DNA of 64,000 bases, taken from NCBI GenBank assembly GCA_028695415.1, contig JAQVIY010000002.1, forward strand, positions 4,883 to 68,882, written 5' to 3'. The stretch's first letter is position 1; each line of letters begins with the position of its first letter. This document shows positions 34,683 to 64,000 of this stretch, one piece after another. The stretch is from Minisyncoccota bacterium (GTDB lineage Bacteria; Patescibacteriota; Minisyncoccia; Phycocordibacterales; Phycocordibacteraceae). The position numbers were made by a program, and so were the translations under genes. Under the pieces are notes generated by a model. That model was given only the letters and a program-made list of their open reading frames with translations, was not told where the DNA came from and made no database searches.

Positions 34683-35510
34683 TTGATGCGGGGTATACTG
34701 TCCGATATAACTATGAGACACGGACAATCATATATAGGACAGAGCACTGAAATCCGTAAAATAAAGCCAGACGGGAAACATGCTCGACCGGAAGATTTTG
34801 TCCTAGAAAAAAGCATATTTGCTAACATATTTGAAAAGGACATTCGAAGAGTTTACATATACAAGAAGGCTGAACGCCTTGCCAAAGCTATCCACCTCAT
34901 CGCGCCGGCCTTCGTTGAATCGGTGTCATTGAAGAACCGGATAGACGCTATTGCCGTCGGTCTTATAGACGCGGCGATATTGCCGCCGGGCACCTCTCGT
35001 ACGGCGCTTTCACGCGAGCTCCTGGCGCTCTCAAGTGCGCTTTCTATTGCGCGCACAAGCGGCGTTCTCTCCGCGATGAACGCCGAGCTCATCGTTCGCG
35101 AAGCTCATATGTTGCTTCACGAAGTCGCCGCGTACGAAGAGCCGCGCTTGTCTTTCGACGAGACGCCGACCCTCTCTTCGCTCGCTAAAGATACGTTCTC
35201 GCGAGAAACCCCGAACGAGTATCGCGAGGCGCCGATAAAGCGCGCCGCTGTGCACCCTGCGGGCAAAGAAAGTCATAAAGGACATGTAAAGGACATACCG
35301 CACGCACCGAACAGCTCTGTAAAGGACAGACGCGACGCTATTTTGTCCGTTATAAAAAATAAAGGCACGGCAAGCATAAAAGACATATCGACCCTCGTGC
35401 GAGGCGTCTCGGAGAAGACCATTCAGCGCGAGCTCGCAGCGCTTATAGGCTCGGGAGAGGTTTTGAAGCAGGGAGAGCGCCGCTGGAGCACCTACTCATT
35501 AGCTGGTTAG
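34683..35510 (+). CDS. hypothetical protein with C-terminal DeoR-like winged HTH
   Basis: C-terminus ILSVIKNKGTASIKDISTLVRGVSEKTIQRELAALIGSGEVLK is wHTH-like. N-terminal 200 aa unknown. Confidence 0.4.
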   Translation: MMRGILSDITMRHGQSYIGQSTEIRKIKPDGKHARPEDFVLEKSIFANIFEKDIRRVYIYKKAERLAKAIHLIAPAFVESVSLKNRIDAIAVGLIDAAILPPGTSRTALSRELLALSSALSIARTSGVLSAMNAELIVREAHMLLHEVAAYEEPRLSFDETPTLSSLAKDTFSRETPNEYREAPIKRAAVHPAGKESHKGHVKDIPHAPNSSVKDRRDAILSVIKNKGTASIKDISTLVRGVSEKTIQRELAALIGSGEVLKQGERRWSTYSLAG

Positions 35511-35600
35511 GCTCTAGGCGCTAGGCTCTAGCTAACCATTAAACCCTAACGCCAAGCGCCTAAAGCCTAGCGTCTAGCGCCTAGGTATGCTAGTATCGAC
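35505..35600. repeat. CTAG-rich intergenic repeat block (copy 2)
   Basis: TTAGGCTCTAGGCGCTAGGCTCTAGC and GCCTAAAGCCTAGCGTCTAGCGCCTAGG. Confidence 0.5.
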
Positions 35601-35781
35601 TCGTGGTAGCGACTAGGGCAGAGAAGTAAAAAAAGACCGGGAATCGGTCTCTTTTGCGTTTCTGTCATACGCCAGTTATCCACATACCACACTGTAGGGG
35701 CTGTATATATAGATATATACTAATCCCTAGTCCTTCCGGGGATTTTTGTTCCCGAAGGGGCGTACTTTGATAACTGAATAG

Positions 35782-35884
35782 TCCAGCCCCAGTTTTGTAA
35801 CGGGACTCCATGTGTATATATGGAACTCGCTTAATGAAGCTGGGGAATTGCTTGTGGCGATCGCGCTACAAAACTGGGGCTGGA
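35782..35884. repeat. 18-bp perfect inverted repeats flanking about 67 nt (MITE-like or structured element) upstream of the large surface protein gene
   Basis: TCCAGCCCCAGTTTTGTA (35782-35799) and TACAAAACTGGGGCTGGA (35867-35884). A related hairpin occurs inside 23S intron 2 at 50711-50749. Confidence 0.5.
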
Positions 35885-36028
35885 CATCAACCCTTGCCAA
35901 CTAACCCATGGCGCACTGGTCGATACCGTGCGCTGTGGGGTAGTGTGAAATTGAAAGTGCTCAAGCGTGCTCTCAATGTGCAACTCTTACTTGATTATCA
36001 CGTGCGACTAAAATCATTAATAATCGTT

Positions 36029-39000
36029 ATGAAAACGGTAACTACAAAGGCGATCGCGAAGGTCGCAGCAGTGGCGACCGGACTCGCGATGGCAACATCG
36101 ATGCTCTCTCTCGCGCCTATGGCGCATGCAGCGAGCCTCACTGCCTCGCAGGTCTCGTCGATTCTCTCGCTCCTCTCTTCGTTCGGTGCAGGTGCTGATA
36201 CGATCGCAAACGTCAACGCAGCGCTCACGGGTGCTCCGGTGACGACCACTACCACCACGACGACCGGCTCGTCTTACACCTTTACGCGCGACCTCACGGT
36301 CGGCTCGAAGGGTGCAGACGTGACGGCGCTCCAGAATGCTCTTATTGCTAAGGGCTTCAGCATTGCAGCAGGCGCAACGGGCTACTTCGGTGCCCAGACG
36401 GTCGCTGCAGTGAAGGCGTGGCAGGTGTCAGCAGGCGTCACGCCGGCTGCCGGCTACTTCGGTCCTAAGTCTCGCGCAGCCTTCGGTGGCGGCGTCTCGA
36501 CTGGCGGTACGACTACTACCACGACTGGCGGTACGGTGACTGCCGGCACGGGCAATGGCCTCAAGGTCATGCTCGCAGCTGACTCTCCGAACAACGTCGC
36601 GCTCGTCGCAGGTCAAGCTATCGGCGCAATTGCGAAGTTCACCTTCGCGAACCCGACTTCAGCTGAAATCAAGGTCACAAACCTTGGTCTCAAGCGTACG
36701 GGTATCAGCAATGATGCGACGATCTCAAATGTCTACCTCTACAATGGGGCAACTCGCCTCACTGATGCAGGCGGCGTTTCAAGCGGCGCATTCAGCTTCA
36801 ACGATCCGACCGGTCTCTTCACAGTGCCGGCAGGTCAGACCGTCTCGATCTCTGTTCTTGCAGATATCGCTACGGGCACCTCGGGTCAGCAGGTTGGCGC
36901 GCAGCTCGTCTCGGTCACTTCGACCGGCACGCTCGATTCCTCTGTAGCGTTCCCGATCAACGGGTACACACAGACAGTCTCGTCGGCTACGCTCGCAACG
37001 GTTGACTACGGTGCTACTACGCTTCCGGCAGAGAACACTGCTTTGACCCCGGCAAATGATGTCACGGTCTGGCAGAACACAGTAACTATCGGAACGCGCG
37101 CAGTGACGCTCAAGTCATTCCAGCTTCAGAACATCGGTTCTGTAGCGGCGACAGATGTCAACAATCTTCGCCTCTATGTGGACGGTGTCCAGACTGGCAG
37201 TGCAGCATCAATCAACGCAAACAACATCGTTACCTGGGATCTCTCCGCAGCCCCGCTTCGTCTTGAGACGGGCGGCCGCGTGATCAAGGTCGTCGGTGAT
37301 GTTGTCGGCGGTTCAAGCCTCACATTCAAGCTTGACCTCCGTCGCGCGTCTGATGCACAGATGGTCGACACTGACCTTAATCAGCCGGTGCTCGCGACAG
37401 CGGCCGGTTCCGCGTTCTCTGCTCGCCACGGTGGCGTACAGACGGTCGCTTCAGGAACCGTATCGGTTGTAAAGGCAGCGAACTCGCCTTCAGCGAACGT
37501 CTCCCTTGGTGCGTCGAACGTCAAATGGGCTAGCTACGAGATGCGTGCAGCCGGTGAAGATGTGAAGATTGATAACCTCGATGTTATGGCCATGACCTCA
37601 AATGATCATGGTCTCGACAATGGTAAGATCTTCCTCAACGGCGTACAGGTTGGTTCTACCAAGGACCTTACTGACAGCAACGGCTCAACTGGTGCGGTGA
37701 ACTTCACCTTCGGCTCGTCCTTCATCTTGAAGGCGGGTGCGACGGCTATCGTCGATGTCTACGCTGACGCGAAGACCTCGACCGGTGCCGCGTACACGAG
37801 CGGTGAGACTGCCCAGATCCGCCTCTTCTACACCGCAAGCTCTGCGAACGGTACAGGTCAGGTGTCACTCTCGAGCATCGATGTCCCGGGTTCGAATGTC
37901 GATGGCAACGCCATCACACTCTCGTCCTCGACAGTTACGATGACGAAGTACTCGGGCTATGGCAATCAGACCATGATTGCCGGCACGAGCGGTGCACGCC
38001 TCGGTTCCTTCGTTCTCTCCACCGGTTCTACCGAGGGAGTGAATGTGAACACGATCGCGGTGACGCTCTCGGCTAATGAGGCCGCAACTGTTACGGACCT
38101 CAAGCTCGTCGATAACGCAACGGGTGCACAGATTGGTACGGTGAAGCCGACCCCGGCTTCTGGTGCATCTGGCAACTCGTTCTCGGTGAACCTCAACATT
38201 TCGGCTTCCGGGACGAAGGTCATCGATGTTATCGGCAGCATCAAGTCCAGCAGCAATGTCGGTCCGTGGATTGCCGCGGTTGATGGCTCGGGCACCGGTA
38301 TTTCGACCGGTTCCTCAGTCACCTTCGGCGATTCGACCTCCGGCACGCTCCAGACGATTACTGTCAGCACTGCCGATCTTACCGCAGCAGTCGGCGTATC
38401 GCCGAACAATGCGAATGTGATTGCAGGCGCATCGATGGTGAAGGTCGGCTCGTTCGACTTCACTTCGCGATACTCGTACTGGAACGTGGATAAGATCCGC
38501 GTGACGGTTCCGAGCAATGCCGCAACCTCGGTTGCTTCAGTTGTTCTCGCGTACCCTGATGTCTCTGGCAACACGGTACAGTCGACGGCAGTCCTCGCAT
38601 CCCCTGCTTCTACGGAGGTAAATGCGACGGCTACCTTCACCGGACTCACCTTCTACATCCCGGCAAACACGACGAAGAAGCTTGACGTATACGTCAACCT
38701 CGCTTCGATCCAGAATGACGGTGATACAGGAAAGTCGATCACGGTAACGCTCGACAGCACTGGCGGCTTCAACAAGACCGACTCTGCTGGCACAGTGAAC
38801 ACGACCTTGAATGCAAGCGACCTTGCGTCGAATGCAACGAGCGGAAAGGGTACGATGTACGTAAGGAAGTCGCTCCCGACCATCTCGGCAGTCGCGCTCG
38901 ATTCCACGACGCTTAGCGCAGGAACGAACAAGACCATCGCTCGCTTCAAGGTTACTGCAGATGCAGCTGGCGATATCGCCTGGGCAAAGGTTGCCTTCAA

Positions 39001-39481
39001 GATCCAAAAGACCTTTGGCATCACCCTTGGCGCAACCAGCACGATGCAGCTCTGGCAGGGTTCAAACACCGTTGCCGGTACCTTCGCAACGACGACTGGA
39101 TCTCTGCTCGCGCAGACTCAGGCATTCCCTGTCGCCGATGGCGCAGCTGCTACGACTGACTTGAACCTCGCGTTCATCCCGACTGCGGAACAGACTGTTC
39201 CGGCTGGTACATCGCTCACCTATGAGCTCCGCACCACGGTCGGTGGTCTCGCAACAAATGGGAACTCGCTCGATGTCTCGATCGCAAACAGGCAGACTTC
39301 TGCAAGCACCACTGCGGCTGCTTCAGTAGTCGGCACCGATGCGAACACGACGAACTCGTTCATCTGGTCTGATAAGTCGAGGGTCTCTGAGACGCATGCG
39401 CTCACGACCGCTGACTGGACTGATGACTATCTCGTGAACACCTTGCCGCTTACCGTTGGTAACCTCTCGGTGACGATCTAG
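36029..39481 (+). CDS. very large secreted surface protein: signal peptide, conserved linker motif, peptidoglycan-binding (PG_binding_1-like) domain, then about 1000 aa of Thr/Ser/Ala-rich Ig-like repeats
   Basis: Start taken at MKTVTTKAIAKVAAVATGLAMA (signal peptide). LTASQVSSILSLLSSFGAGADTIANVNAALTG then TRDLTVGSKGADVTALQNALIAKGF...GYFGAQTVAAVKAWQ (PG-binding). Terminator at 39525-39560. Confidence 0.6.
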   Translation: MKTVTTKAIAKVAAVATGLAMATSMLSLAPMAHAASLTASQVSSILSLLSSFGAGADTIANVNAALTGAPVTTTTTTTTGSSYTFTRDLTVGSKGADVTALQNALIAKGFSIAAGATGYFGAQTVAAVKAWQVSAGVTPAAGYFGPKSRAAFGGGVSTGGTTTTTTGGTVTAGTGNGLKVMLAADSPNNVALVAGQAIGAIAKFTFANPTSAEIKVTNLGLKRTGISNDATISNVYLYNGATRLTDAGGVSSGAFSFNDPTGLFTVPAGQTVSISVLADIATGTSGQQVGAQLVSVTSTGTLDSSVAFPINGYTQTVSSATLATVDYGATTLPAENTALTPANDVTVWQNTVTIGTRAVTLKSFQLQNIGSVAATDVNNLRLYVDGVQTGSAASINANNIVTWDLSAAPLRLETGGRVIKVVGDVVGGSSLTFKLDLRRASDAQMVDTDLNQPVLATAAGSAFSARHGGVQTVASGTVSVVKAANSPSANVSLGASNVKWASYEMRAAGEDVKIDNLDVMAMTSNDHGLDNGKIFLNGVQVGSTKDLTDSNGSTGAVNFTFGSSFILKAGATAIVDVYADAKTSTGAAYTSGETAQIRLFYTASSANGTGQVSLSSIDVPGSNVDGNAITLSSSTVTMTKYSGYGNQTMIAGTSGARLGSFVLSTGSTEGVNVNTIAVTLSANEAATVTDLKLVDNATGAQIGTVKPTPASGASGNSFSVNLNISASGTKVIDVIGSIKSSSNVGPWIAAVDGSGTGISTGSSVTFGDSTSGTLQTITVSTADLTAAVGVSPNNANVIAGASMVKVGSFDFTSRYSYWNVDKIRVTVPSNAATSVASVVLAYPDVSGNTVQSTAVLASPASTEVNATATFTGLTFYIPANTTKKLDVYVNLASIQNDGDTGKSITVTLDSTGGFNKTDSAGTVNTTLNASDLASNATSGKGTMYVRKSLPTISAVALDSTTLSAGTNKTIARFKVTADAAGDIAWAKVAFKIQKTFGITLGATSTMQLWQGSNTVAGTFATTTGSLLAQTQAFPVADGAAATTDLNLAFIPTAEQTVPAGTSLTYELRTTVGGLATNGNSLDVSIANRQTSASTTAAASVVGTDANTTNSFIWSDKSRVSETHALTTADWTDDYLVNTLPLTVGNLSVTI

Positions 39482-39702
39482 TCTCATCGGTCAAAGATTC
39501 CAGCTAGAAAATTGGTCTAGCGAAACAAAAAACCACCCTTCGGGGTGGTTTTTTGTTATGTATACTGAAACCTTTTTATTTCTTGGCGGGTTATCCCCAG
39601 GTTTCTCTCTCTAGACATTTATTCTGAGCTTATAGGAGTACACTGAGCTTGAAAGGCTTTCGCGCCTTTTATTATCCGTTTCGTAATAAAGCTAATTCAT
39701 TT

Positions 39703-40176
39703 ATGAATCGCATCACAACGTTTCTGAATTCCCTCGGGAGGAGCGCCCGCGTTTTTGTGCTCTCTCTCGCGGTAGTCTTTGTCGGGGCTGGCATCGCTCA
39801 GGCCGCTACGACTATCAGCACGAATATCGCAACTGCCGGGACGCTCTCGGTGACCGGCCTCTCAACGCTTCTTGGCGGGGCGACGACCACGCAGATTACG
39901 CTCCTTAGCGGCGATCAGATTACAAATGCGGCGGCCAGCACCACCGTTGTTTCTGGCAATCTGACCGTTGGCGATGCAACAGCAGTCACTCCTCGCCTCG
40001 TTGTCACGAATGCGGCAAATGCGACCTCAACCGTTCAGGCGGGGTGCGTACAGACAACCGCGACAAGCTCGGCGACAACGATCAAGCTCATCTTCAACAA
40101 CATCGCGACAAGCACCACCATCAACGGTGCGTCAGTCGCCGGATATGTGTTGTGGGCTTACGGGACCTGCCCATAG
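39703..40176 (+). CDS. secreted Thr/Ala-rich protein with C-terminal Cys pair
   Basis: Start at MNRITTFLNSLGRSARVFVLSLAVVFVGAGIAQA (signal peptide). TT/AT-rich low-complexity sequence. Ends ...GCVQTT...YGTCP. Confidence 0.45.
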   Translation: MNRITTFLNSLGRSARVFVLSLAVVFVGAGIAQAATTISTNIATAGTLSVTGLSTLLGGATTTQITLLSGDQITNAAASTTVVSGNLTVGDATAVTPRLVVTNAANATSTVQAGCVQTTATSSATTIKLIFNNIATSTTINGASVAGYVLWAYGTCP

Positions 40177-40213
40177 CCATAGCGAGTCGTTTACTCACTA
40201 ATTCACACTCACT

Positions 40214-41131
40214 ATGCCACGAATACTTACTGGCGCAGGGATCCTCGTGGCGCTTATCGCACCTGTATCAGCGCTTGCTTCAGATGTGACCCTCACGACC
40301 GATACGGTCCTCAGTGTGAACGGCGTTACGCTGAATGTCTCCGGCTCGAGCGCTTCTGTCGACTCGATAGTCGTGAATGCGACGAACTTCGTTGTCGCAA
40401 TGTCATCAGGATCATCTTTCAAGGTGACGGCTCCCGGTCTCGAGAAGATTACCTCTGACACGAGTTCCGGTCTCACTGGTTTCGTCTGCGACAGTAGCGG
40501 CTCGTCCATTACCTACACGCCGACTTCAGCAGTGACGGCAACCATTGTGCCGCTCTCGACCCTCTGTTCCTCAACGAGCGACACGAGCACGGGAGGGAGC
40601 ACGAGCAGCACGGTTGTGACATCGGGCTCGAGCAGTTCGAGCAGCTCCGGCAGTAGCGCAGCATCTGCTACTCCAGCAGCGTCTGTAACACAGACAACAA
40701 CCACGGCAGCGACCACTGCAGCAGCCACACCCGCGACGCCGGCAATCCCTGCTTCCGGTCTCTCTGTCTCGCAGGTGCAGTCGATTCTCGATGTGCTCGC
40801 CTCGTTTGAAGTCGATGCAGCAACGATGGCAAGCGTGAAGGCAGCACTTGAAGGGACGACGACCGGCTCGATAACGAGCGCGGCGGTGCACACATTCCAA
40901 GCGAATCTCACCGTCGGTTCGCTTGGTAGCGAAGTGAAAGCGCTCCAGCAGTTCCTCAATGCTCACGGCTACCCGGTAGCCTCGAGCGGTGCGGGTTCTC
41001 CGGGAAATGAGACGACCCGATTCGGCGCGGCAACGAAAGCTGCACTCATCAAGTATCAGAAAGCGAAGGGCATTACGCCCGCCGCAGGATACTTTGGCGC
41101 GAAAACTCGTGCAGCCGTCAACGCTGAATAA
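40214..41131 (+). CDS. secreted protein with Ser/Thr-rich linker and C-terminal peptidoglycan-binding domain
   Basis: Signal peptide. LSVSQVQSILDVLASFEVDAATMASVKAAL motif shared with the 36029 protein. C-terminal LTVGSLGSEVKALQQFLNAHGY...TKAALIKYQ (PG_binding_1-like). Terminator 41150-41185. Confidence 0.6.
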   Translation: MPRILTGAGILVALIAPVSALASDVTLTTDTVLSVNGVTLNVSGSSASVDSIVVNATNFVVAMSSGSSFKVTAPGLEKITSDTSSGLTGFVCDSSGSSITYTPTSAVTATIVPLSTLCSSTSDTSTGGSTSSTVVTSGSSSSSSSGSSAASATPAASVTQTTTTAATTAAATPATPAIPASGLSVSQVQSILDVLASFEVDAATMASVKAALEGTTTGSITSAAVHTFQANLTVGSLGSEVKALQQFLNAHGYPVASSGAGSPGNETTRFGAATKAALIKYQKAKGITPAAGYFGAKTRAAVNAE

Positions 41132-41204
41132 CAGAAGACTCCTCGCATGAAAGAAAAACCACCCGCAGTGCGGGTGGTTTTTCTTATGGTATTCTCTTTG
41201 GTGT

Positions 41205-41927
41205 ATGAACATCTCAAAGAAACACTGGGTAGCGGTCGGTCTTGGTCTCGGTCTCATAACGCTTGCGGCTATGGGTGTCGTACAGTTCGCATTTCCGTAT
41301 CGCGCTGTCGCACCGCAAAAGGAGACCGCGGAATCTCCGGTCGCTGACGCTTCCATTGCGACCACAGGCTCGGAGGGCGTACCGGCGGTGACGACGGTGT
41401 CTATAGAGCCGACCCGCCCTGTCGTCACTCCTCCTTCGATCGCGAGAGGCGATACGATAGTCTCTTGGAACTTCACCGGCGCATACGCGCAGGACTCAAC
41501 ACTTCAAGCAAGAGCGAATGCAGAAATAACCCGCCTCTCGGGACTTCTTGAGATGGCGACATCGTCAAAAGTGACTCTTTTAGTCGGTATCGCAAATCAG
41601 TACGAGCTCCTGGGAGACGGCAAACAAGAGTACGAGTATCTTAGCCGCGCCATCGAAGAGGGAGGCGAGACGACCGGTCTCCCTTGGCACAATCTCGGCG
41701 TCCTTATGGAGCGGCTCGGCGCTCTCGAGACCGCGCGTACGGCATACGAGAATGCGACAATCGTACAATCTCAGTACAAGCAGTGGCACTACGCGTTTCT
41801 CGAGTTCCTTACGACGCGAATGAGAGACGAGACAGCTGATATTGAGAAAGCCTTTTCAGCGGCACTGAAAAACCTCGGACAAGATTCCGACATACTTGAT
41901 CTCGAGAGCGCGTGGAAACAGCTATGA
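41205..41927 (+). CDS. membrane-anchored hypothetical protein
   Basis: N-terminal TM helix (HWVAVGLGLGLITLAAMGVV) then a 200-aa periplasmic part. Overlaps the start of the next gene. Confidence 0.4.
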   Translation: MNISKKHWVAVGLGLGLITLAAMGVVQFAFPYRAVAPQKETAESPVADASIATTGSEGVPAVTTVSIEPTRPVVTPPSIARGDTIVSWNFTGAYAQDSTLQARANAEITRLSGLLEMATSSKVTLLVGIANQYELLGDGKQEYEYLSRAIEEGGETTGLPWHNLGVLMERLGALETARTAYENATIVQSQYKQWHYAFLEFLTTRMRDETADIEKAFSAALKNLGQDSDILDLESAWKQL

Positions 41928-44158
41928 AGCGCCTGCGCCAGACATTGTCTATCCTGCTTCTTGTTCCGGCAGTCCTTCCACTCGTGTACATAGGAGGCAT
42001 TCTCTACCCGTACATTGCGCCGAAGACATTTCTCCTTCTTTTTTGTGGTATTGCAGCGCTTGCGCTCTTTGCCTATCTCGCACTGCGCGGCGAGGCGTTC
42101 TTCTATGAACGGTTGCACGAGAAGAAGACTTGGATACCGATACTCCTGCTTATCATCGCGTATCTCGCCTCATATACCGGCATCGATTTTTATCACAGTT
42201 TCTGGGGACTCTTTGAGCGCGGCGATGGGCTCCTGACGCTTACGATTATCACCGGGTACTTCTATCTCTTCGTCCTTTCTGCTACGCATGCCTTTTTGGA
42301 TCGGTTCACCAAAGTCGTTACAGTCGTTGCCGGTATCGTAGCGTCTATCGCGGTGCTCCAATGGGCAACGACGATATTCGGAGAGGGCGCGGCCTTCCTG
42401 CCGCCGGTTACCGGCCGCATCGGGAGCACACTTGGGAACGCTGCTTTTCTTGCGGGGTATCTCGGTATGGCGCTGTTCGTGTCGCTTTTCCTCGCGCGCA
42501 ACACCGATACGATATGGCGGCGAATCGGGAAGATAACCGCAATCCTCTCCGTGTTTGCAATAGTGTTTGCCGCGACGCGCGGTACGATACTCGCGCTTAT
42601 CGCGGCTCTCCTCATTGTGCTTATCTTCACGGCGTGGAAGGGGGAGGGTCAGGCGAAGAAGTTTGCACGGTATGGATGCTTGGCCGTCATTGTTCTCGCC
42701 GGTCTCTTCTTCGCATTCCGCTCTGACCTCGCGCAGAGCTCCTTTGAACCCGTAAAGCGCATCGCATCCATCTCGCTTTCTGACAGCACCACCAGCAATC
42801 GCCTATTCGCATGGTCACAGATAGCTGCCGAAACGCTCCAGCGCCCCTGGAGCGGCTATGGCGCTGAACATATCGCACAACTCTTCGACACGATCTATGA
42901 CCCGAGCAAGATCTCTGAACAGTGGTTCGACCGATCGCACAACGCCTTCCTTGATTATTTCGCGCAGTACGGAGTGTTCGGGCTCGCGCTCTATCTCTCG
43001 CTCATCGGCGCCTTTATGCTCTCCGCTCTCGCATGGTATCGGCGAGAAGCGGGCGGTCTTACGAACCCCGGGCTGCTTTCTCTCCTCCTTATCATCACTT
43101 ATGCCGTACAGAACTTCTTCGTGTTCGACACCTCTTCGTCGCTCTGGCTCTTGTACGCCCTCTTTGCGTTTCTCATTGTCCAGCTCTCGGGAGTATCGGC
43201 GACATCTCGATTCGGACACCTGCCGTCGTTTGTGCCGTGGATTACGTCCGGCATCATCCTCCTTACCAGTATCCCGACCGTGACAGTGCCGCTGTATGCG
43301 AACATCCTCTTGACCAATGGCTACCGCTACCACCTTGTAGACATCAACAAGGCGAATGCATATTTCAAGCAAGGGTTTGCACTTCACACCTATGCTGATA
43401 TGGAGTACGGGTATCAAGCGTATGAGATGTACACCGGACACCAGGCAACAGCGCTTTCAGGAAAGGATCGTGTTGCCGCATATGAGTATGCGCTTTCGGT
43501 GCTCTCGGCGAACTATGTGAAGTATCCGTATGACGCGCGTACCGCGACATACCTCGGACATGTGCTTGATACGACACCACCGGAAGTCGCCGTTGACGAT
43601 GTTTTCGACGAGCGGGTGCTTACGCGAGCTATCGAGCTCTCACCGCTTCGGGCACAGGGATGGTATATGTTGGCGAACGTTTATCTGCGGAAAGCCGATG
43701 CGCTCCCTCGGAATGACCCGAATAGGGAAACCTATTTCCGAGAAGCGATCAAGATACTCGAAGCGTATATAGAAAAAGAGCCGACGCTCCCTGTGCCGCG
43801 ATATACGCTCGTGAATCTCTATTACAACCTTGGCGATACACAAGCGTCGAAGAAATGGGCGGACAGCGCGCTGCCGCTCTATACGACCGCTGATGTCGCG
43901 GCAGCTGCTCCTGCGGTGAAATATTATCTGGCGATAGGGGATTGGCAGCATGCCGTCCCATTCCTCGAAGACCTCGTTCGTGAGAATCCCGCTGACTACA
44001 ACACGCTCTACGACCTCGCAAAGGTGAGCTATCTCGCGGGCGACCCCGCGACTGCCGAGCGTATCGTGCAGAAGCTTCGCATAGAGAATCCGAATATCAT
44101 CCCGACCGATCCCAATTTCCTTTCCGCTATTACCGCCTATGAACAATCCACAAAATAA
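41912..44158 (+). CDS. O-antigen ligase-like (Wzy_C family) polytopic membrane protein with C-terminal TPR repeats
   Basis: About 12 TM helices with a large periplasmic loop, then TPR-like repeats (AYFKQGFAL...YLRKADAL...). Confidence 0.65.
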   Translation: METAMKRLRQTLSILLLVPAVLPLVYIGGILYPYIAPKTFLLLFCGIAALALFAYLALRGEAFFYERLHEKKTWIPILLLIIAYLASYTGIDFYHSFWGLFERGDGLLTLTIITGYFYLFVLSATHAFLDRFTKVVTVVAGIVASIAVLQWATTIFGEGAAFLPPVTGRIGSTLGNAAFLAGYLGMALFVSLFLARNTDTIWRRIGKITAILSVFAIVFAATRGTILALIAALLIVLIFTAWKGEGQAKKFARYGCLAVIVLAGLFFAFRSDLAQSSFEPVKRIASISLSDSTTSNRLFAWSQIAAETLQRPWSGYGAEHIAQLFDTIYDPSKISEQWFDRSHNAFLDYFAQYGVFGLALYLSLIGAFMLSALAWYRREAGGLTNPGLLSLLLIITYAVQNFFVFDTSSSLWLLYALFAFLIVQLSGVSATSRFGHLPSFVPWITSGIILLTSIPTVTVPLYANILLTNGYRYHLVDINKANAYFKQGFALHTYADMEYGYQAYEMYTGHQATALSGKDRVAAYEYALSVLSANYVKYPYDARTATYLGHVLDTTPPEVAVDDVFDERVLTRAIELSPLRAQGWYMLANVYLRKADALPRNDPNRETYFREAIKILEAYIEKEPTLPVPRYTLVNLYYNLGDTQASKKWADSALPLYTTADVAAAAPAVKYYLAIGDWQHAVPFLEDLVRENPADYNTLYDLAKVSYLAGDPATAERIVQKLRIENPNIIPTDPNFLSAITAYEQSTK

Positions 44159-46759: not shown

Positions 46760-47727
46760 GTTCCTCCTCCAAAACCGCCCCCTTTCTAGAGGGGGCGGTT
46801 TTGTGTTGACAGGGATTTCTGCGTACCCTATACTCCTTCTACGTGTCTACGAACCGAAAACTTTCTTACTTAGGAGCGGATAGGCCGTAAGGCCGCGCGC
46901 GTTGCAAAACGCACGAAAACCGCCCCGAGGGGCGGTTTTCGTTTCAAAAAGGGACACGGGAATCTTTGACATACGAATACGCATAGGTAATTGAAAGCTC
47001 CGTGGCTCACCGCTACGGAGCATCAAAGTGCAGATAGTAATGGTTGTGGTAACCAGAATTCCGTGCGAGAGACAGTAAGAGTACACGGTGGATGCCTTGG
47101 CCTAGGACGGCGAAGAAGGACGCGACTAACCTGCGATAAGCTTCGGGGAGGCGGTTTGTAGCCTTTGATCCGGAGATGTCCGAATGGGGAAACCCTACAG
47201 TTTTGAACTGTAATCCGCGGGGTAACGCCCGCGCGAAGCGAACCCTGGGAAGTGAAACATCTCAGTACCAGGAGGAAAAGAGAACAATATGAATTGCGTT
47301 CTCTTCAAGCATTATGTTTGTTTGAAGGGAACGCGATTCTCGTGATACCCCGAGTAGCGGCGAGCGAAAAGGGAAAAGCCCAAACCCGCACACTCACTTT
47401 GCCATTGTGCCTAACGTTGTTCAGAAGAATCAACTTCTGGACGCGCGTGGCCCAATGGAACGTTTGAGTATCAACTACGTCAGTTGGCACAAGAACAACG
47501 ATGGCAAAGTGAGTGTGCGGGGGTTGTAAGATGCGAACATTCCGATTTATCGGTAAAGAGTTATCAATCGTCTATATAGCGGAAGCTGCTGGGAAGCAGC
47601 GCCCCAGAGGGTAATGGCCCCGTACGCGAAATGTATGACGACTCTTGTTTGTATTCTTGAGTAGTTCGAGACACGAGTAGCTCGAATGAATCTGCCGGAA
47701 CTAACCGGTAAGGCTAAACACGTCCTA

Positions 47728-47774
<47 letters not shown>

Positions 47775-49389
47775 GAGAGGGGAGTGAAATAGAACTGAAA
47801 CCGTGTACTTACAAGGGGTCGGAGCGGTGCACCATACAGCACTTGTGCTGTCTCGTGCTTGATTAAGCAGGGCGAAACTTGATAAGGACTTAGATTTGGG
47901 CGTGCGTACGGACAACAAACTCCATACGCAGTAAGCCAGGCGTTGAGCCGTCTAAGATAACTGTCAGGTGCCCTCCTTAATCATGTACGAGTGTTGTATG
48001 GTGCACCGTGACGGCATGCCTATTGAAGAATGAGCCGGCGAGTGTATATATCTTGCGTAGCTAAGTCCTTACGGGGCGGAGCTTAAGGGAAACCGAGCGT
48101 GAATAGCGCGATTGTAGGATATATACGACCCGAAGCCAGATGAGCTTGCCATGAGCAGGGTGAAGTTTGTCGAAAGACAGATGGAGGCCCGAACCCGTTG
48201 GTCGTACAACGCCTTGGGATGACTTGTGGCAAGGAGTGAAAAGCTAATCGAATCTGGGAATAGCTGGTTCTCTCCGAAACAGCTTTTGGGCTGGCGTCGC
48301 CATATGTGTGCATGGGGGTAGAGCACTGGAAGGGATCAACAGGGAGAAATCTCGTGATTCCTATCAAACTCCGAATACCATGTACCCGGGCGGCAGTTAG
48401 AAGGTGGGGGCGAAGCTCCATCGATCGAGAGGGGAAGAGCCCTGATCGCAAATTAAGGCCCCTAAATCAACGCTCAGTACATCCACAAGGAAGTGAGGAC
48501 TCATAGACAGTGAGGATGTTGGCTTAGAAGCAGCCACCATTCAAAGAAAGCGTAACAGCTCACTCATCGAGAGTCCTTGCGCCGAAGATGATCGGGGTTA
48601 AGCGTTGTGCCGAAATTGCGGGTTTGTGTTTATTCCGATAAATACAAGCGGTAGGAGAGTGTTCTGTTCGCGATGAAGCTTAAGGGGTAACCCGTGGTGG
48701 AGCGTACAGAAGTAAGAATGCCGGTACAAGTAACCACAACGCGGGTGAGAACCCCGCGCGTCGAAAGATCAAGGTTTCCTCAGCTATGGTGATCAACTGA
48801 GGGTTAGTCGGGCCTAAGGGGATGGCGAGAGCCGCACCCGATGGACACAGGGTTAATATTCCCTGACCGTTTTTAGAGGCTATGGAGTGACGGACTGCTG
48901 TATGTGCTGCCCATTATTGGATTTGGGTCGGCTTGGTGAGGAAGCGCGTTAGGCAAATCCGGCGCGCATTATTCCGAGCTGAGTCGCAATTTCCTCCTAC
49001 GGGGGGAGAGAGGGTGCAAAGCGCGGTTCCAAGAAAATCTTCTACGCATCAACTCTAAAGATGACCGTACCGTAAACCGACACAGGTGATCAGGTCGAGC
49101 AGACCAAGACGAACGAGTAAGAGGTCCTCAAGGAACTCGGCAAACAAGCGGCCGTAAGTTAGCGATAAGGCCTGCCTCCTGCCTGCAAGGGCGGGAGGCC
49201 GCAGCGAAAGTTTTCCTATCAACTGTTTACCAAAAACACAGCTCCCTGCAAACTCGTAAGAGGAAGTATAGGGGGTGACACCTGACCAATGCCGGAAGGT
49301 TAACCACGGTGGGTGGTATGTCGCAAGATGTACTGCTGGACTGTGTAAGCCCCGGTGAATGTCGGCGATAACTATAATCGTCCTAAGGT

Positions 49390-49902
49390 TCCGGGCGCGA
49401 CGAGAGTCGTGCTCGGAAGGACTAGGACGATTGTAGCGGTAAACATACACAAGCTGCCTTGCTGCGCAGTAATGCGCGGATTAGTCCACATGGCTATATG
49501 CTGGGAAGCGCGGAAGCGCGATCAGCAGGGAAGATTCGTGAACTTCACAGAGGAGAATAATCCTCAAAGATATAAGTTGGGTTGGTGTAATAATCAATCA
49601 AAGAGACAGGCATAGACAGCGAGGAGGTGGGCTTAAGAGCAGCCACCCTTTGAAGAGAGCGTTATAGCTCACTCGTCGAGTCGGTCAGACGTGGTTGATA
49701 GCATAAGAAGACATTTGGCCTTGCCTGCGTGCAAGGGACAACCAGTGCCTTCAAGACGTCGGACCAGTTTCGACACCCATCTTATACCCTAGGGAATGAC
49801 TACATTCCCTCTTCTGTGAAGTTCACGAAAACCCTCAGAGACCAAACGCCATACTCCTATTCGTAGGAGCAAGATAGAGTCCAAAGGTTGAAAGGAACCT
49901 AG
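49390..49902 (+). mobile_element. 23S insertion 1: ORF-less group I-like intron after the position equivalent to E. coli U1931 (helix 69/71 region)
   Basis: 5' exon ends CCTAAGGT (U). Insertion ends ...CCTAG (G). Exon resumes AGCGTAATTCCTTGTCGGG. Contains a roughly 20-bp long-range inverted repeat (49536-49557 with 49810-49830) and a roughly 75-nt segment near-identical to 23S 48510-48585. Confidence 0.6.
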
Positions 49903-50810
49903 AGCGTAATTCCTTGTCGGGTAAGTTCCGACGTGCACGAATGGTGTAATGAGTGGGAAACTGTCTCGAGGACTCGCTCGGTGAAAATGCACTTCCGGTG
50001 AAGATGCCGGATACCTGTAGTTAGACGAAAAGACCCCAGGAGCTTTACTATAGCTTCGTATTGGCACTGCGGGATTCATGCGTAGCATAGGTGGGAGGAT
50101 TTGAAGCATTGGTTTCGGCTGGTGTGGATCCGTCAGTGAAATACCACTCTTGAATTTTGCAGTGTCTAACCCCGTGAGCGTAACTCACGGGGGACCGTGC
50201 GTGGCAGGTAGTTTTGGTGGGGCGCTATCCTCCTAAAAAGTAACGGAGGAGTCTATTAAGGTTCTCTAGGCGCGAATGGAAACCGTGCCGATAGTGTAAT
50301 GGCATAAGAGAGCTTAACTGTAAGGGGTACATCCCGAGCAGATGCGAAAGCAGAGCATAGTGAACCGATGGTACGCCTTAGATGCGGCCAGAGATTAACG
50401 GATATAAGTTACCCTGGGGATAACAGGCTAGTTCCGCCCAAGCGTCCATAGCGACGGCGGAGTTCGGCACCTCGATGTCGGCTCACCTTAGCGCGGGGCT
50501 GGAGAAGGTCCCAAGCGTATGGCTGTTCGCCATTTAAAAAGGTACGCGAGCTGGGTTCAAACCGTTCAGCAACTGACTTCGGTCGGTGATTGAACGGTTT
50601 GAACCCCGAGGCAAATGTTAGCTACGTGGAGACGTAGTGTGAATAAACGACAACTCACGGCGGTCTCGACTAGGAATAGTCGAGAAGCAAATCAACTGAT
50701 ATCGGTGGAACCCAGCCCCAGTTTTAAAATGCATAAAACTGGAGCTGGGCAATACCGAGGGAATTTGTCTTATGTGCTTCATTGAGGAATGTTCTTTGAG
50801 AATGTATTGC

Positions 50811-52420: not shown

Positions 52421-52539
52421 GGTTCTGGTGGTTCGGCGGCGGGGTCATACCCGTTCTCATTCCGAACACGGCAGTCAAGCCCGCTAGCGGCGATGGTACT
52501 CATCGTTTCAGATGGGGAGAGTAGCTAACCGCCAGAACC
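52421..52539 (+). rRNA. rrf: 5S ribosomal RNA
   Basis: Terminal helix GGTTCTGGTGG / CCGCCAGAACC. Internal CCGAACACGGCAGTCAAGCCC and AGATGGGGAGAGTAGC. Confidence 0.8.
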
Positions 52540-63047: not shown

Positions 63048-63284
63048 TGTTCCATCTTGTGGGTGACCCGTCAGAATTGACGGGTCACATTTTGTTTTAG
63101 GGTCTATTGACGCCCTTTCGACCTTCCTATACTATGGCCTTACTGTCCCCCTATGGGGGACGGGGTGTTTCTTTGACATCAAAATACGTGAATGCCCGCC
63201 ACGGAGGTGGCGGGCGAAAAGCCCCGACGTTACAGTCGGGGTAAAAGATGTGTGAATTCTTTTGTTCCGCCTATTCTTATTGAG

Positions 63285-64000
63285 AGTTTGATCCTAGCTC
63301 AGGGTGAATGCTGGCGGCGTGGATAAGTCATGCAAGTCAAGGGGGCCCGCAAGGGCAACCGGCAGACGAGGTAGTAACACGTAGGTAGATCCCCCGAAGT
63401 CGGGCATAGCCAGTCGAAAGACTGGGTAATTCCCGATAGTCTCCTTCTTCGCTGTGTATTTCATCACAGCTACGAAGGACGCAGCCGCAAGGCCGTGTCC
63501 TCCGAAGCTCGGAATGGAATGTAGAGCGAAGGAGGAGTAAAGGTTTTTCGCTTCGGGAGTCGCCTGCGCAGTATCAGCTAGTTGGTAGGGTAACGGCCTA
63601 CCAAGGCTACGACGCTTAGGGGAGCTGAGAGGCTGACCCCCACCGATGGAACTGCGACACGGTCCATACTCCTACGGGAGGCTGCAGACGAGAATATTCC
63701 GCAATGGACGAAAGTCTGACGGAGCGACGCCGCGTGATGGATGAAGTGCCTTGGTACGTAAACATCTTTTATCGGGGACGAAGTTTATTGACGGTACCCG
63801 ATGAATAAGGAGCTCCTAACTCTGTGCCAGCAGGAGCGGTAATACAGAGGCTCCAAGCATTACCCGGAATCACTGGGCGTAAAGGGTGTCTAGGCGGCCA
63901 TATTAGTCTTTCGTTAAATCTGCGGGCTCAACCTGCAGGCTGCGAGGGAAACGGTATGGCTCGAGGGCGTGAGAGGTGCACGGAACTCATGGTGGAGGGG
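63285..64000 (+). rRNA. rrs: 16S ribosomal RNA, 5' part (continues beyond the window)
   Basis: AGAGTTTGATCCTAGCTCAG at 63285, ACTCCTACGGGAGGCTGCAG, GTGCCAGCAGGAGCGGTAATAC (mismatch to universal 515F GTGCCAGCMGCCGCGGTAA), GGGCGTAAAGGG. Confidence 0.9.

Follow-up and report, generated by a model that had tools for sequence, protein, structure and literature searches.

We analysed a 64,000-nucleotide (nt) window of contig JAQVIY010000002.1 (Minisyncoccota bacterium, assembly GCA_028695415.1), in which a cluster of genes for secreted-type proteins surrounds a large protein of 1150 amino acids (aa); coordinates are given as positions within this window. Upstream of the large gene lie the gene of a 275-aa helix-turn-helix (HTH) protein and an intergenic region of 518 nt (35511-36028) that holds a structured leader RNA. 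Downstream lie genes for a 157-aa protein with two cysteines (the Cys-pair protein), a 305-aa protein, a 240-aa protein with a transmembrane (TM) helix and a TPR-like domain (the TM/TPR protein) and a 748-aa Wzy_C protein with TPR repeats (the Wzy_C-TPR protein). An original prediction for this DNA had read the cluster as a surface layer or an attachment apparatus; a peptidoglycan-anchored surface cluster is what we found, whereas host attachment received no direct support. The locus was compared by tblastn with three long contigs, 19 species genomes and 80 metagenome loci, assemblies of Hainich aquifer samples having supplied many of the loci, and the nearest relatives of its proteins come from metagenome-assembled genomes named Candidatus Kaiserbacteria, Paceibacterota or Pacebacteria. 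Related genomes, in numbers from dozens to hundreds, also contain the large and the 305-aa protein, the motif that they share and the leader, so that these elements are not chance observations.

The large protein starts with MKTVTTKAIAKVAAVATGLAMATSMLSLAPMAHA/A, a sequence with n-, h- and c-regions that ends in AHA/A and whose positions are almost invariant in orthologues; judged by its sequence, the protein would be of the secreted type with a canonical, unusually conserved Sec-type signal peptide. Its PG_binding_1 domain (PF01471) was matched in Pfam with an E-value of 2.3e-9 and 37.7 bits against a gathering cut-off of 23, and by sequence and fold it is the same three-helix domain as in solved peptidoglycan-binding domains. 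The monomer model from AlphaFold 2 (AF2) is an elongated chain with a mean predicted local distance difference test score (pLDDT) of 77.6 and a predicted template modelling score (pTM) of 0.40, in which the signal-peptide helix is followed by two motif helices (39-51 and 56-67), a disordered Thr-rich linker (69-81), the three-helix peptidoglycan-binding domain (96-151), a second disordered linker and some 9-10 beta-sandwich domains that reach to the C-terminus. Foldseek returned generic immunoglobulin (Ig)-like and cohesin-like matches for this model. The predicted Thr/Ser/Ala-rich composition was borne out and extends to Gly and Val: Thr (14.5%), Ala (13.9%), Ser (11%), Gly (10%) and Val (9.7%) together make up 59% of the residues, Cys is absent, Met accounts for 1.2% and the protein is slightly acidic (68 Asp and Glu against 61 Lys and Arg). 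An acidic, Cys- and Met-poor composition rich in these five residues is typical of surface-layer (S-layer) proteins, as is an envelope anchor, which is provided here by the N-terminal PG_binding_1 domain.

No SLH domain was detected at E-values up to 0.1 and no adhesive domain was found in the large protein in Pfam or NCBIfam, its self-comparison by BLASTP revealed no internal sequence repeats, and none of the three secreted proteins of the cluster contains a recognisable catalytic domain. Sortase anchoring through a C-terminal LPLTVG was considered and rejected, because this sequence, which is not LPXTG, is followed by neither a TM segment nor a tail; the protein ends with TLPLTVGNLSVTI and a stop only 8 aa past it. 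There are 916 detectable homologues, and those that bear a name are labelled 'peptidoglycan-binding protein' or 'hypothetical protein'; all of the best 120 span the full length, mostly with 1113-1214 aa, at identities of 51-100%. Across the listed full-length homologues and the compared loci, length is nearly constant (about 1093-1214 aa), and the protein is kept full-length at 45-78% identity in a fixed neighbourhood. An alignment of 38 sequences showed that the signal peptide is strikingly conserved and that conservation also covers the motif, the peptidoglycan-binding domain and the whole body.

In a BLASTP comparison (E 1e-25), residues 37-151 of the large protein matched residues 183-301 of the 305-aa protein with 50% identity across 122 columns, which confirms the predicted motif shared ahead of a peptidoglycan-binding domain and its placement, towards the N-terminus in the large protein and towards the C-terminus in the 305-aa protein. 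This cassette of 122 aa consists of a two-helix motif, a Thr-rich linker and PG_binding_1. The predicted order is therefore right, but the motif does not stand directly before the domain, since the linker, which is predicted to be disordered, places 23-26 aa between them. The consensus in both families is LTxxQ(V/I)xSILxLLxSFGADxxTIAxVxAxLxG, the two helices are modelled in the 305-aa protein with a pLDDT of 83-93, and a regular expression for the motif matched only these two proteins in a six-frame translation of the window.

We searched a 35-position profile of the motif against 1.84 billion cluster representatives and recovered 1605 proteins at E-values up to 0.001 and 251 at E-values up to 1e-10; the named examples are from Kaiserbacteria. 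The proteins span 68-1859 aa and carry up to five copies each, the top-scoring one usually just after the signal peptide, and where several copies are present, one precedes the peptidoglycan-binding domain while the others occur as doublets between Ig-like domains. PG_binding_1 was found in 59 of 77 diverse motif proteins sampled, and 18 of the 77 had no match to it; other domains in the sample were Kre9/KNH Ig-like, TIG, PKD, fn3, dockerin, CARDB, ice-binding and trypsin. Many further secreted multi-Ig proteins of this lineage employ the hairpin together with PG_binding_1, as the 305-aa protein does. Because the motif occurs in tandem and away from PG_binding_1, it is not part of the boundary of that domain; it is an independent helical-hairpin module that is often paired with PG_binding_1. 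The original view of a linker motif holds as regards its conservation and fails as regards its nature, the hairpin being free-standing, tandem and exchangeable. No family in Pfam accounts for it, NCBIfam lacks it as well, and a sequence search of the PDB gave no match, the solved peptidoglycan-binding proteins being without it. The module thus appears to be undescribed in these domain databases and in the literature found.

The hairpin is not universal in orthologues of the large protein. In one subclade (L047, L049, L053, L056, L065, L068-L070, L076, L081, L086, L095 and L099) a different signal peptide, mostly MSKALATKNVAA..., is followed by a single DLQAQI..LLAQI..LQ helix in place of the hairpin, and the L015 orthologue passes from the usual signal peptide straight to the peptidoglycan-binding domain, with no helix before it.

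The intergenic region upstream of the large gene is conserved to a degree that the proteins are not: an alignment of four loci contained long invariant blocks although the proteins are just 57-68% identical. A 23-mer taken from the leader was present in the genomes of 19 GTDB species, 90-176 nt before the gene start wherever that start lay within the fetched stretch, and nhmmer detected the leader in 70 of the 102 loci, once in each and always immediately 5' of the large gene. The 43 unique full-length leaders have a mean nucleotide identity of 71%. For these, RNAalifold gave a consensus of 44 base pairs in seven helices, 16 of the pairs with compensatory double changes, and 96.3% of the alignment cells are paired, compared with 34-52% when the partners are slid by 1-3 columns. 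None of 500 shuffles reached the observed pairing value on any of five measures, and the leader of the window folds with a minimum free energy of −166.4 kcal/mol (z −8.97). Many of the conserved pairs are G-U, which on the opposite strand would turn into A-C mismatches, and the leader is thus read from the strand of the gene. The non-coding leader with an inverted repeat described in the original prediction is hence present, but as a conserved multi-helix RNA and not as a simple spacer, and the 25-nt arms of the repeat are those of helix 6.

The seven helices differ in their variability. Helix 1, a terminator-like hairpin, is conserved with covariation among GC, GU and AU pairs. In locus L017 this helix and the whole first domain are cleanly deleted while the promoter and GUGG-UUAU-CCAC are retained, a pattern that supports the proposed start point and closing helix of the leader. 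Helix 6 is a short hairpin in most genomes, and all six of its basal consensus pairs show compensatory changes; in the window and in L004 (JAKFXG010000007.1, about 905-1045) an insertion of approximately 85-100 nt with related arms extends it into a stem of 19-25 bp, which may have arisen as an expansion common to both or may be a small mobile hairpin. Helix 7 is long and nearly invariant, and a covariance model of it, R1, matched once in each of 68 of the 100 sources and at no other place in the 1.19 Mb. In a long-range helix the GGGCGUAC box is paired with the stretch that lies 25-35 nt ahead of the AUG. Several unpaired nucleotides are invariant, namely the loop UGGUCGAUACC, the internal loops, GTTATCCACA and GGGCGUACUUUGAUAAC. 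The box GTTATCCACA, with the DnaA 9-mer TTATCCACA inside it, is invariant in all 43 unique leaders, and the 9-mer is the sole perfect copy in the window; a proposed pairing partner of the box varies without compensation. The DnaA box was also considered as a mark of a replication origin, which we rejected since a single perfect box in 64 kb, with no cluster, does not make an origin.

Helix 7 is missing from 16 loci of a more divergent subclade that retains the protein, of which 14 are those with the other signal peptide and the single helix. The gaps before the gene are nevertheless kept there, at 420-880 nt, and 15 of the 16 contain at least one of the leader boxes. Loci with the replaced N-terminus also lack helix 7 wherever their upstream region was available, and the 5' block therefore seems to be inherited as one unit.

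The boundary between leader and gene required attention, as the NCBI annotation (MDD3531240.1, 1178 aa) uses an in-frame start inside the leader that adds 35945-36028 to the reading frame. This start was rejected in favour of the 1150-aa start at 36029 because orthologues begin with MKTVTTKA, and because in relatives the indels of that segment vary in length and its changes preserve base pairs. Synonymous positions in codons 1-8 (36029-36052) are almost invariant in 47 unique orthologues, which suggests that constraint at the RNA level extends into the coding start; in a synonymous-site test across the signal-peptide coding region only these codons stood out, and the remainder was ambiguous. 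Occlusion of a Shine-Dalgarno (SD) sequence by the leader was rejected. SD-like motifs precede just 10 of 64 crude starts of open reading frames in the window, hence their absence before the large gene is uninformative, and SD-based initiation apparently plays a small part in this genome.

In Rfam the leader had no match at gathering thresholds, and at E-values up to 10 only far-sub-threshold microRNA-precursor models appeared, on the long hairpin. A resemblance to T-boxes (GGU..ACCG) was not supported, as no T-box match appeared in this search. Literature on a Kaiserbacteria surface protein or on the leader was not found beyond bioRxiv 10.1101/2024.05.28.596244 and PMC10936435, and the leader appears to be undescribed both in Rfam and in the literature found.

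The leader is preceded by a promoter. A TTGAC(T/G)-17 nt-TAnnnT arrangement is present in 38 of 46 unique related loci, with a −10 element that is mostly TAGTAT, usually has TGn before it and ends 6-7 nt (in one locus 12 nt) before the conserved GUGG; in relatives this is, as far as sequence can tell, a consensus promoter of the sigma-70 type with an extended −10, of which the window retains the −10 part. CTAG-rich repeats, among them TAGGCTCTAG and CTAGCG..., lie between the stop of the HTH gene and the promoter, and similar palindromes occupy the same place in L008, L009 and L016.

In relatives the gene order is FtsK, HTH protein, leader, large protein, an optional pair of small-protein genes, TM/TPR protein, Wzy_C-TPR protein and rplJ. 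Where the flank sufficed, the HTH protein was found 5' of the large gene in 59/59 loci and together with the divergent FtsK in 57/59. Where 5.5 kb or more of downstream sequence was available (41 loci), the TM/TPR protein is present 3' of the large gene in 40 and the Wzy_C-TPR protein in 38, after which comes rplJ. In 17 of these 41 loci the Cys-pair and 305-aa genes separate the large gene from the TM/TPR gene, the 305-aa gene lies 3' of the Wzy_C gene in another arrangement seen in 6 (once along with the Cys-pair gene), and in 18 neither was found within the examined flank. From these counts, the conserved core consists of the HTH protein, the leader, the large protein, the TM/TPR protein and the Wzy_C-TPR protein, whereas the 305-aa and Cys-pair genes are an optional, movable pair. 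The large protein has one conserved locus per contig, in a housekeeping, core-genome neighbourhood. Median identities to the proteins of the window across the loci are 78% for FtsK, 68% for L10, 65% for the HTH protein, 60% for the N-terminal domain of the 305-aa protein, 55% for the body of the large protein, 47% for the Wzy_C-TPR protein and 44% for the TM/TPR protein.

The optional pair encodes the remaining secreted proteins. As predicted, a Thr/Ala-rich protein with a Cys pair lies between the two cassette-bearing proteins; its signal-peptide-like N-terminus ends in AQA/A, it has exactly two Cys, one of them in a C-terminal GTCP, and it has no match in Pfam or NCBIfam. Homologues in about 30 loci share a nearly invariant signal peptide and a mature N-terminus ATTISTNI.T.G.L. 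The C-terminal part is variable, complete copies having 157-364 aa and two Cys (four in two copies), and these polymorphic bodies have recurrent endings, AVYAFNFWAFQ and GFVLWAYG.xC. Wherever both genes were detected, the Cys-pair gene lies directly 5' of the 305-aa gene. In the 305-aa protein, PG_binding_1 was matched in Pfam with an E-value of 4.9e-13 and 49.5 bits against the gathering cut-off of 23.

Of the flanking proteins, the 275-aa HTH protein is a candidate regulator, with no sequence match in the PDB. The O-antigen-ligase/TPR protein that had been predicted to follow the cluster was found, although not immediately next to it, because the TM/TPR gene lies between the 305-aa and Wzy_C genes, its stop overlapping the start of the latter. 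The Wzy_C match (PF04932, aa 209-362) scored 74.9 bits against a cut-off of 31.7 (E 7.6e-21), and TPR_19, TPR_17 and TPR_14 were all over their Pfam cut-offs. In three related contigs a 107-aa protein with a Glucodextran_B-type (Ig-like) Pfam match is encoded between RecA and FtsK. The GC content of the window is about 55%. Its 23S rRNA gene (47063-50606) measures 3544 nt compared with a model of 2925 nt, which points to one or more insertions of about 600 nt in all, and the 23S, 5S (52424-52537) and 16S (63276-64000) genes are unlinked, with tRNA and protein genes intervening. Judged by this rRNA layout, the oversized 23S gene and the names of the homologues, the genome is one of the Patescibacteria/candidate phyla radiation (CPR) type.

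Table 1. Features of the surface-protein locus and of related contigs. Positions refer to the window unless a locus is named.
Feature	Position	Strand	Remarks
275-aa protein, C-terminal winged helix (DeoR-like HTH)	34683-35510	+	Pfam HTH_DeoR E 5.9e-4, just under curated cut-off
CTAG-rich inverted and direct repeats	35508-35584	.	Repeat search; between HTH gene stop and promoter
Extended −10 element TGcTAGTAT	35588-35596	+	−35 degenerate in this genome
Large gene's structured 5' leader RNA	35603-36028	+	426 nt in this window; most relatives have about 320-345 nt
Helix 1, terminator-like hairpin and U-run	35634-35650	+	Terminator scan; about 30 nt past leader start
Perfect DnaA-box 9-mer TTATCCACA inside invariant box GTTATCCACA	35676-35684	+	
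Helix 6, variable hairpin	35781-35885	+	25-nt arms 35781-35805 and 35861-35885, 92% complementary
Helix 7, near-invariant long hairpin, loop UGGUCGAUACC	35894-35948	+	22 pairs, 99.2% paired
Large surface protein, 1150 aa	36029-39481	+	Signal peptide aa 1-34
Large protein, helical hairpin	36137-36232	+	aa 37-68; then Thr linker
Large protein, PG_binding_1	36311-36466	+	aa 95-146; about 9-10 beta-sandwich domains at aa 172-1150
157-aa secreted-type Thr/Ala-rich protein, two Cys	39703-40176	+	True start is the ATG at 39703
305-aa protein	40214-41131	+	Signal peptide aa 1-22
305-aa protein, beta-sandwich	40286-40567	+	aa 25-118; disordered Ser/Thr/Ala/Pro linker aa 122-177
305-aa protein, helical hairpin	40760-40855	+	aa 183-214
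305-aa protein, PG_binding_1	40925-41116	+	aa 238-301
240-aa protein, N-terminal TM helix and TPR-like domain	41205-41927	+	Weak TPR matches
748-aa polytopic Wzy_C (O-antigen-ligase family) protein, C-terminal TPR repeats	41912-44158	+	Pfam
107-aa Glucodextran_B-type protein	L001 6145-6468; L002 4024-4347; L003 4228-4554		

In light of these data, we conclude that the locus is very probably a peptidoglycan-anchored surface-protein locus, and we lean, with modest confidence, towards the large protein being the main wall-anchored surface protein of a Kaiserbacteria-lineage cell, most likely a predicted S-layer subunit. After Sec export, the N-terminal PG_binding_1 domain would keep the protein in place by binding non-covalently to the peptidoglycan of the cell itself, with the beta-sandwich body as the outer layer, while the strong promoter and the stable leader would give very high, possibly feedback-controlled expression. 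The hairpin would mediate pairing between anchor cassettes or aid wall binding, and the 305-aa protein with its variable Cys-pair partner would be an optional second wall-anchored display unit. The Wzy_C-TPR and TM/TPR proteins would modify the layer or the linkers, for example by O-glycosylation of the poly-Thr/Ser stretches, or would build a wall glycopolymer; in view of its family match and its conserved adjacency to Thr/Ser-rich surface proteins, the Wzy_C protein is a candidate protein O-oligosaccharyltransferase of the PglL/PilO/WsaB type. The S-layer assignment agrees with the near-constant length, the composition, the fixed core-genome position, the promoter and the structured leader, and with the finding of no other anchor in the large protein, neither SLH nor an LPXTG-type signal. 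It also agrees with the repeated use of the anchor cassette in other surface-type proteins and with independent work on related bacteria, in which S-layer proteins were predicted and peptidoglycan-binding proteins were highly expressed.

A similar arrangement is known from Gram-positive S-layer loci. In Geobacillus stearothermophilus, sgsE precedes the slg glycosylation cluster, which includes the Wzy_C-type O-oligosaccharyltransferase WsaB, and loci of this type resemble ours in having a large secreted structural protein that lacks Cys and is attached to the wall by its N-terminal part, Ser/Thr-rich stretches for O-glycosylation and a Wzy_C-family membrane protein encoded directly downstream. 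They differ in that the anchor here is PG_binding_1 with the hairpin instead of SLH, CWB2 or domains that bind secondary cell wall polymers, that glycosyltransferase and flippase genes are not adjacent, and that the Wzy_C protein has TPR repeats and is paired with the TM/TPR protein. The same three-helix PG_binding_1, by sequence and fold, is found in SleB (6tci), the Streptomyces DD-peptidase (1lbu), phiKZ gp144 (3bkh) and L,D-transpeptidases, but here it is located on non-enzymatic multi-Ig proteins, usually with the 35-aa hairpin that is absent from those enzymes.

The closest precedents are within the same phylum, and the S-layer idea for such proteins is not new. The supplement of a preprint (bioRxiv 10.1101/2024.05.28.596244) lists predicted S-layer proteins, obtained with AF2-multimer under planar symmetry and including Patescibacteria; among its entries are a Kaiserbacteria protein of 1173 aa (A0A0G1WWP5, symmetry 6+2,3), proteins from Nealsonbacteria (1131 aa), Doudnabacteria (1264 aa) and Kazan (1274 aa), and two proteins from Kuroda et al. 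of 1185 and 692 aa. Kuroda et al. (mBio 2024; PMC10936435) report that proteins with peptidoglycan-binding domains are among the five most expressed signal-peptide genes in three cultured Paceibacteria, with an expression value of 16.7 for PMX_810_sub_00350 (692 aa) compared with about 9-12.5 for the listed neighbours, and that they have similar AF2 structures; possible host-attachment factors is the authors' suggestion. These proteins resemble the one described here in phylum (and in one case in candidate class), size (about 1130-1270 aa against 1150), signal peptide, peptidoglycan-binding domain, Ig-like body and proposed role as dominant surface protein, whereas the hairpin, the TM/TPR and Wzy_C-TPR neighbours, the 305-aa and Cys-pair genes and the leader go without mention in the parts of the two sources that were consulted. 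It is likely but unproven that the 1150-aa family is that of the 1173-aa Kaiserbacteria protein; A0A0G1WWP5 was not among the named cluster members, and no locus had a 1173-aa orthologue under rough start calls.

Several points weigh against the S-layer assignment. The lattice and the high abundance of the large protein are presumed, known S-layer proteins were not among its Foldseek matches, and the replacement or absence of the hairpin in some orthologues means that this module is not essential to the core role of the protein. S-layer proteins are usually poorly conserved, whereas the body of the large protein keeps a median identity of 55% across the clade, although it still evolves faster than FtsK or L10. 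To our knowledge, a PG_binding_1 anchor has not been experimentally shown for any S-layer. The absence of glycosyltransferase genes from the immediate neighbourhood in the three long contigs leaves the glycosylation step unsupported, and the kinship with A0A0G1WWP5 and the proteins of Kuroda et al. is putative.

The large protein could instead be a fibrillar adhesin or host-attachment factor with the Ig-like chain as its stalk, and the 305-aa and Cys-pair proteins further adhesins, either with one end anchored to the cell's own wall or with the peptidoglycan-binding domain gripping the wall of a bacterial host. We regard this as unlikely, although the elongated AF2 chain would suit it, the best Foldseek matches were the Ig-like stalks of PrgB, AgI/II and Bap, the C-terminal body of the Cys-pair family is variable as expected of a partner-facing surface, and Kuroda et al. 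(PMC10936435) read proteins of the homologous type in this sense. PrgB, antigen I/II and Bap, as fibrillar adhesins of monoderms, indeed share with the large protein a chain of Ig-like beta-sandwiches on a wall-attached secreted protein, but the latter has neither the tandem sequence repeats and length variation typical of stalks nor an LPXTG signal, and no adhesive head or tip domain was recognisable in Pfam and NCBIfam. Its single locus per contig among housekeeping genes and its moderate, not rapid, divergence also speak against an adhesin. Moreover, if its sole anchor domain bound the host, the protein would be left without attachment to its own cell, and the hosts that Kuroda et al. propose are archaea, which have no peptidoglycan. 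A very improbable alternative is that the cluster is a unit of wall maintenance or remodelling, in which the peptidoglycan-binding proteins recruit wall enzymes, the large protein would act as a scaffold within the wall and the Wzy_C-TPR protein would polymerise or ligate a wall glycopolymer. In characterised proteins PG_binding_1 is found mostly on L,D-transpeptidases and on hydrolases of the wall, the Wzy_C family consists of enzymes that ligate or polymerise glycans, and FtsK adjoins the cluster; against this, no catalytic domain was found in any of the three secreted proteins, about 980 aa of Ig-like domains are hard to fit inside a thin wall, and FtsK is divergently oriented and simply part of the conserved housekeeping block.

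With the large protein taken as an S-layer subunit, the role of the leader can be considered separately. Long structured 5' untranslated regions (UTRs) stabilise the S-layer mRNAs of Lactobacillus acidophilus and L. crispatus slpA (reviewed in PMC3666127). The leader described here is similarly long and stable, follows an efficient promoter and precedes the gene of a surface protein, the great abundance being that of the slpA product; however, it is much longer, has at least seven helices and invariant loops and is kept across dozens of species-level lineages, which places it closer to a riboswitch-class element than to a single stabilising hairpin. Beyond mRNA stabilisation, it might therefore be a cis-regulatory sensor RNA (a riboswitch or a protein-binding operator) or an independent small RNA, a proposal that we take seriously but do not favour, and which, being compatible with the S-layer assignment, concerns the mechanism of the leader only. 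The signal for a sensor might be subunits awaiting assembly, the HTH protein of the adjoining gene, DnaA or a precursor of the wall. The invariant unpaired nucleotides together with seven covarying helices would fit such an element, as would the higher conservation of the leader (71% nucleotide identity, against the median amino-acid identity of the adjacent protein body), the terminator-like hairpin about 30 nt past its start, the tie of the GGGCGUAC box to the region ahead of the AUG, the nearly invariant synonymous positions of codons 1-8 and the presence of exactly one copy per locus. On the other side, a switch by alternative pairing is not supported by covariation: for the candidate GUUAUC/GAUAAC pairing, which we rejected, flanking changes were not consistently compensated on reading the sequences, with no formal count made. 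The element is also missing from the divergent subclade that still has the protein, and an independent small RNA is unlikely because there is no terminator between leader and gene.

Two of the elements described here are candidates for new families, the leader as an RNA family with strong covariation and the hairpin as a protein domain family with about 1600 cluster representatives. It is tentatively proposed, and on balance we think it rather doubtful, that both hold at once in a functional sense: the leader would be a new class of cis-regulatory RNA that ties production of the dominant envelope protein to a signal in the cell, such as subunits not yet assembled, a precursor of the wall, the HTH protein encoded next to it or, through the TTATCCACA box, DnaA, and the hairpin would be a new wall-targeting or pairing domain by which many surface proteins of Patescibacteria, the 305-aa protein among them, dock side by side on peptidoglycan.

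Because almost no CPR bacteria have been cultured, the construction of their envelope and their contact with hosts are largely unknown. The locus offers a concrete, widely conserved outer-surface gene set for one large lineage, which comprises a structural protein with its anchor cassette, two membrane partners that are conserved and an optional display pair. Its promoter and leader can be sought in existing metatranscriptomes, and the addition of the hairpin and the leader to databases would improve the annotation of thousands of 'hypothetical' or 'peptidoglycan-binding' proteins. If the joint proposal is true, the leader and the hairpin would together determine the way in which an ultra-small bacterium that depends on a host assembles its outer surface and keeps it under control.

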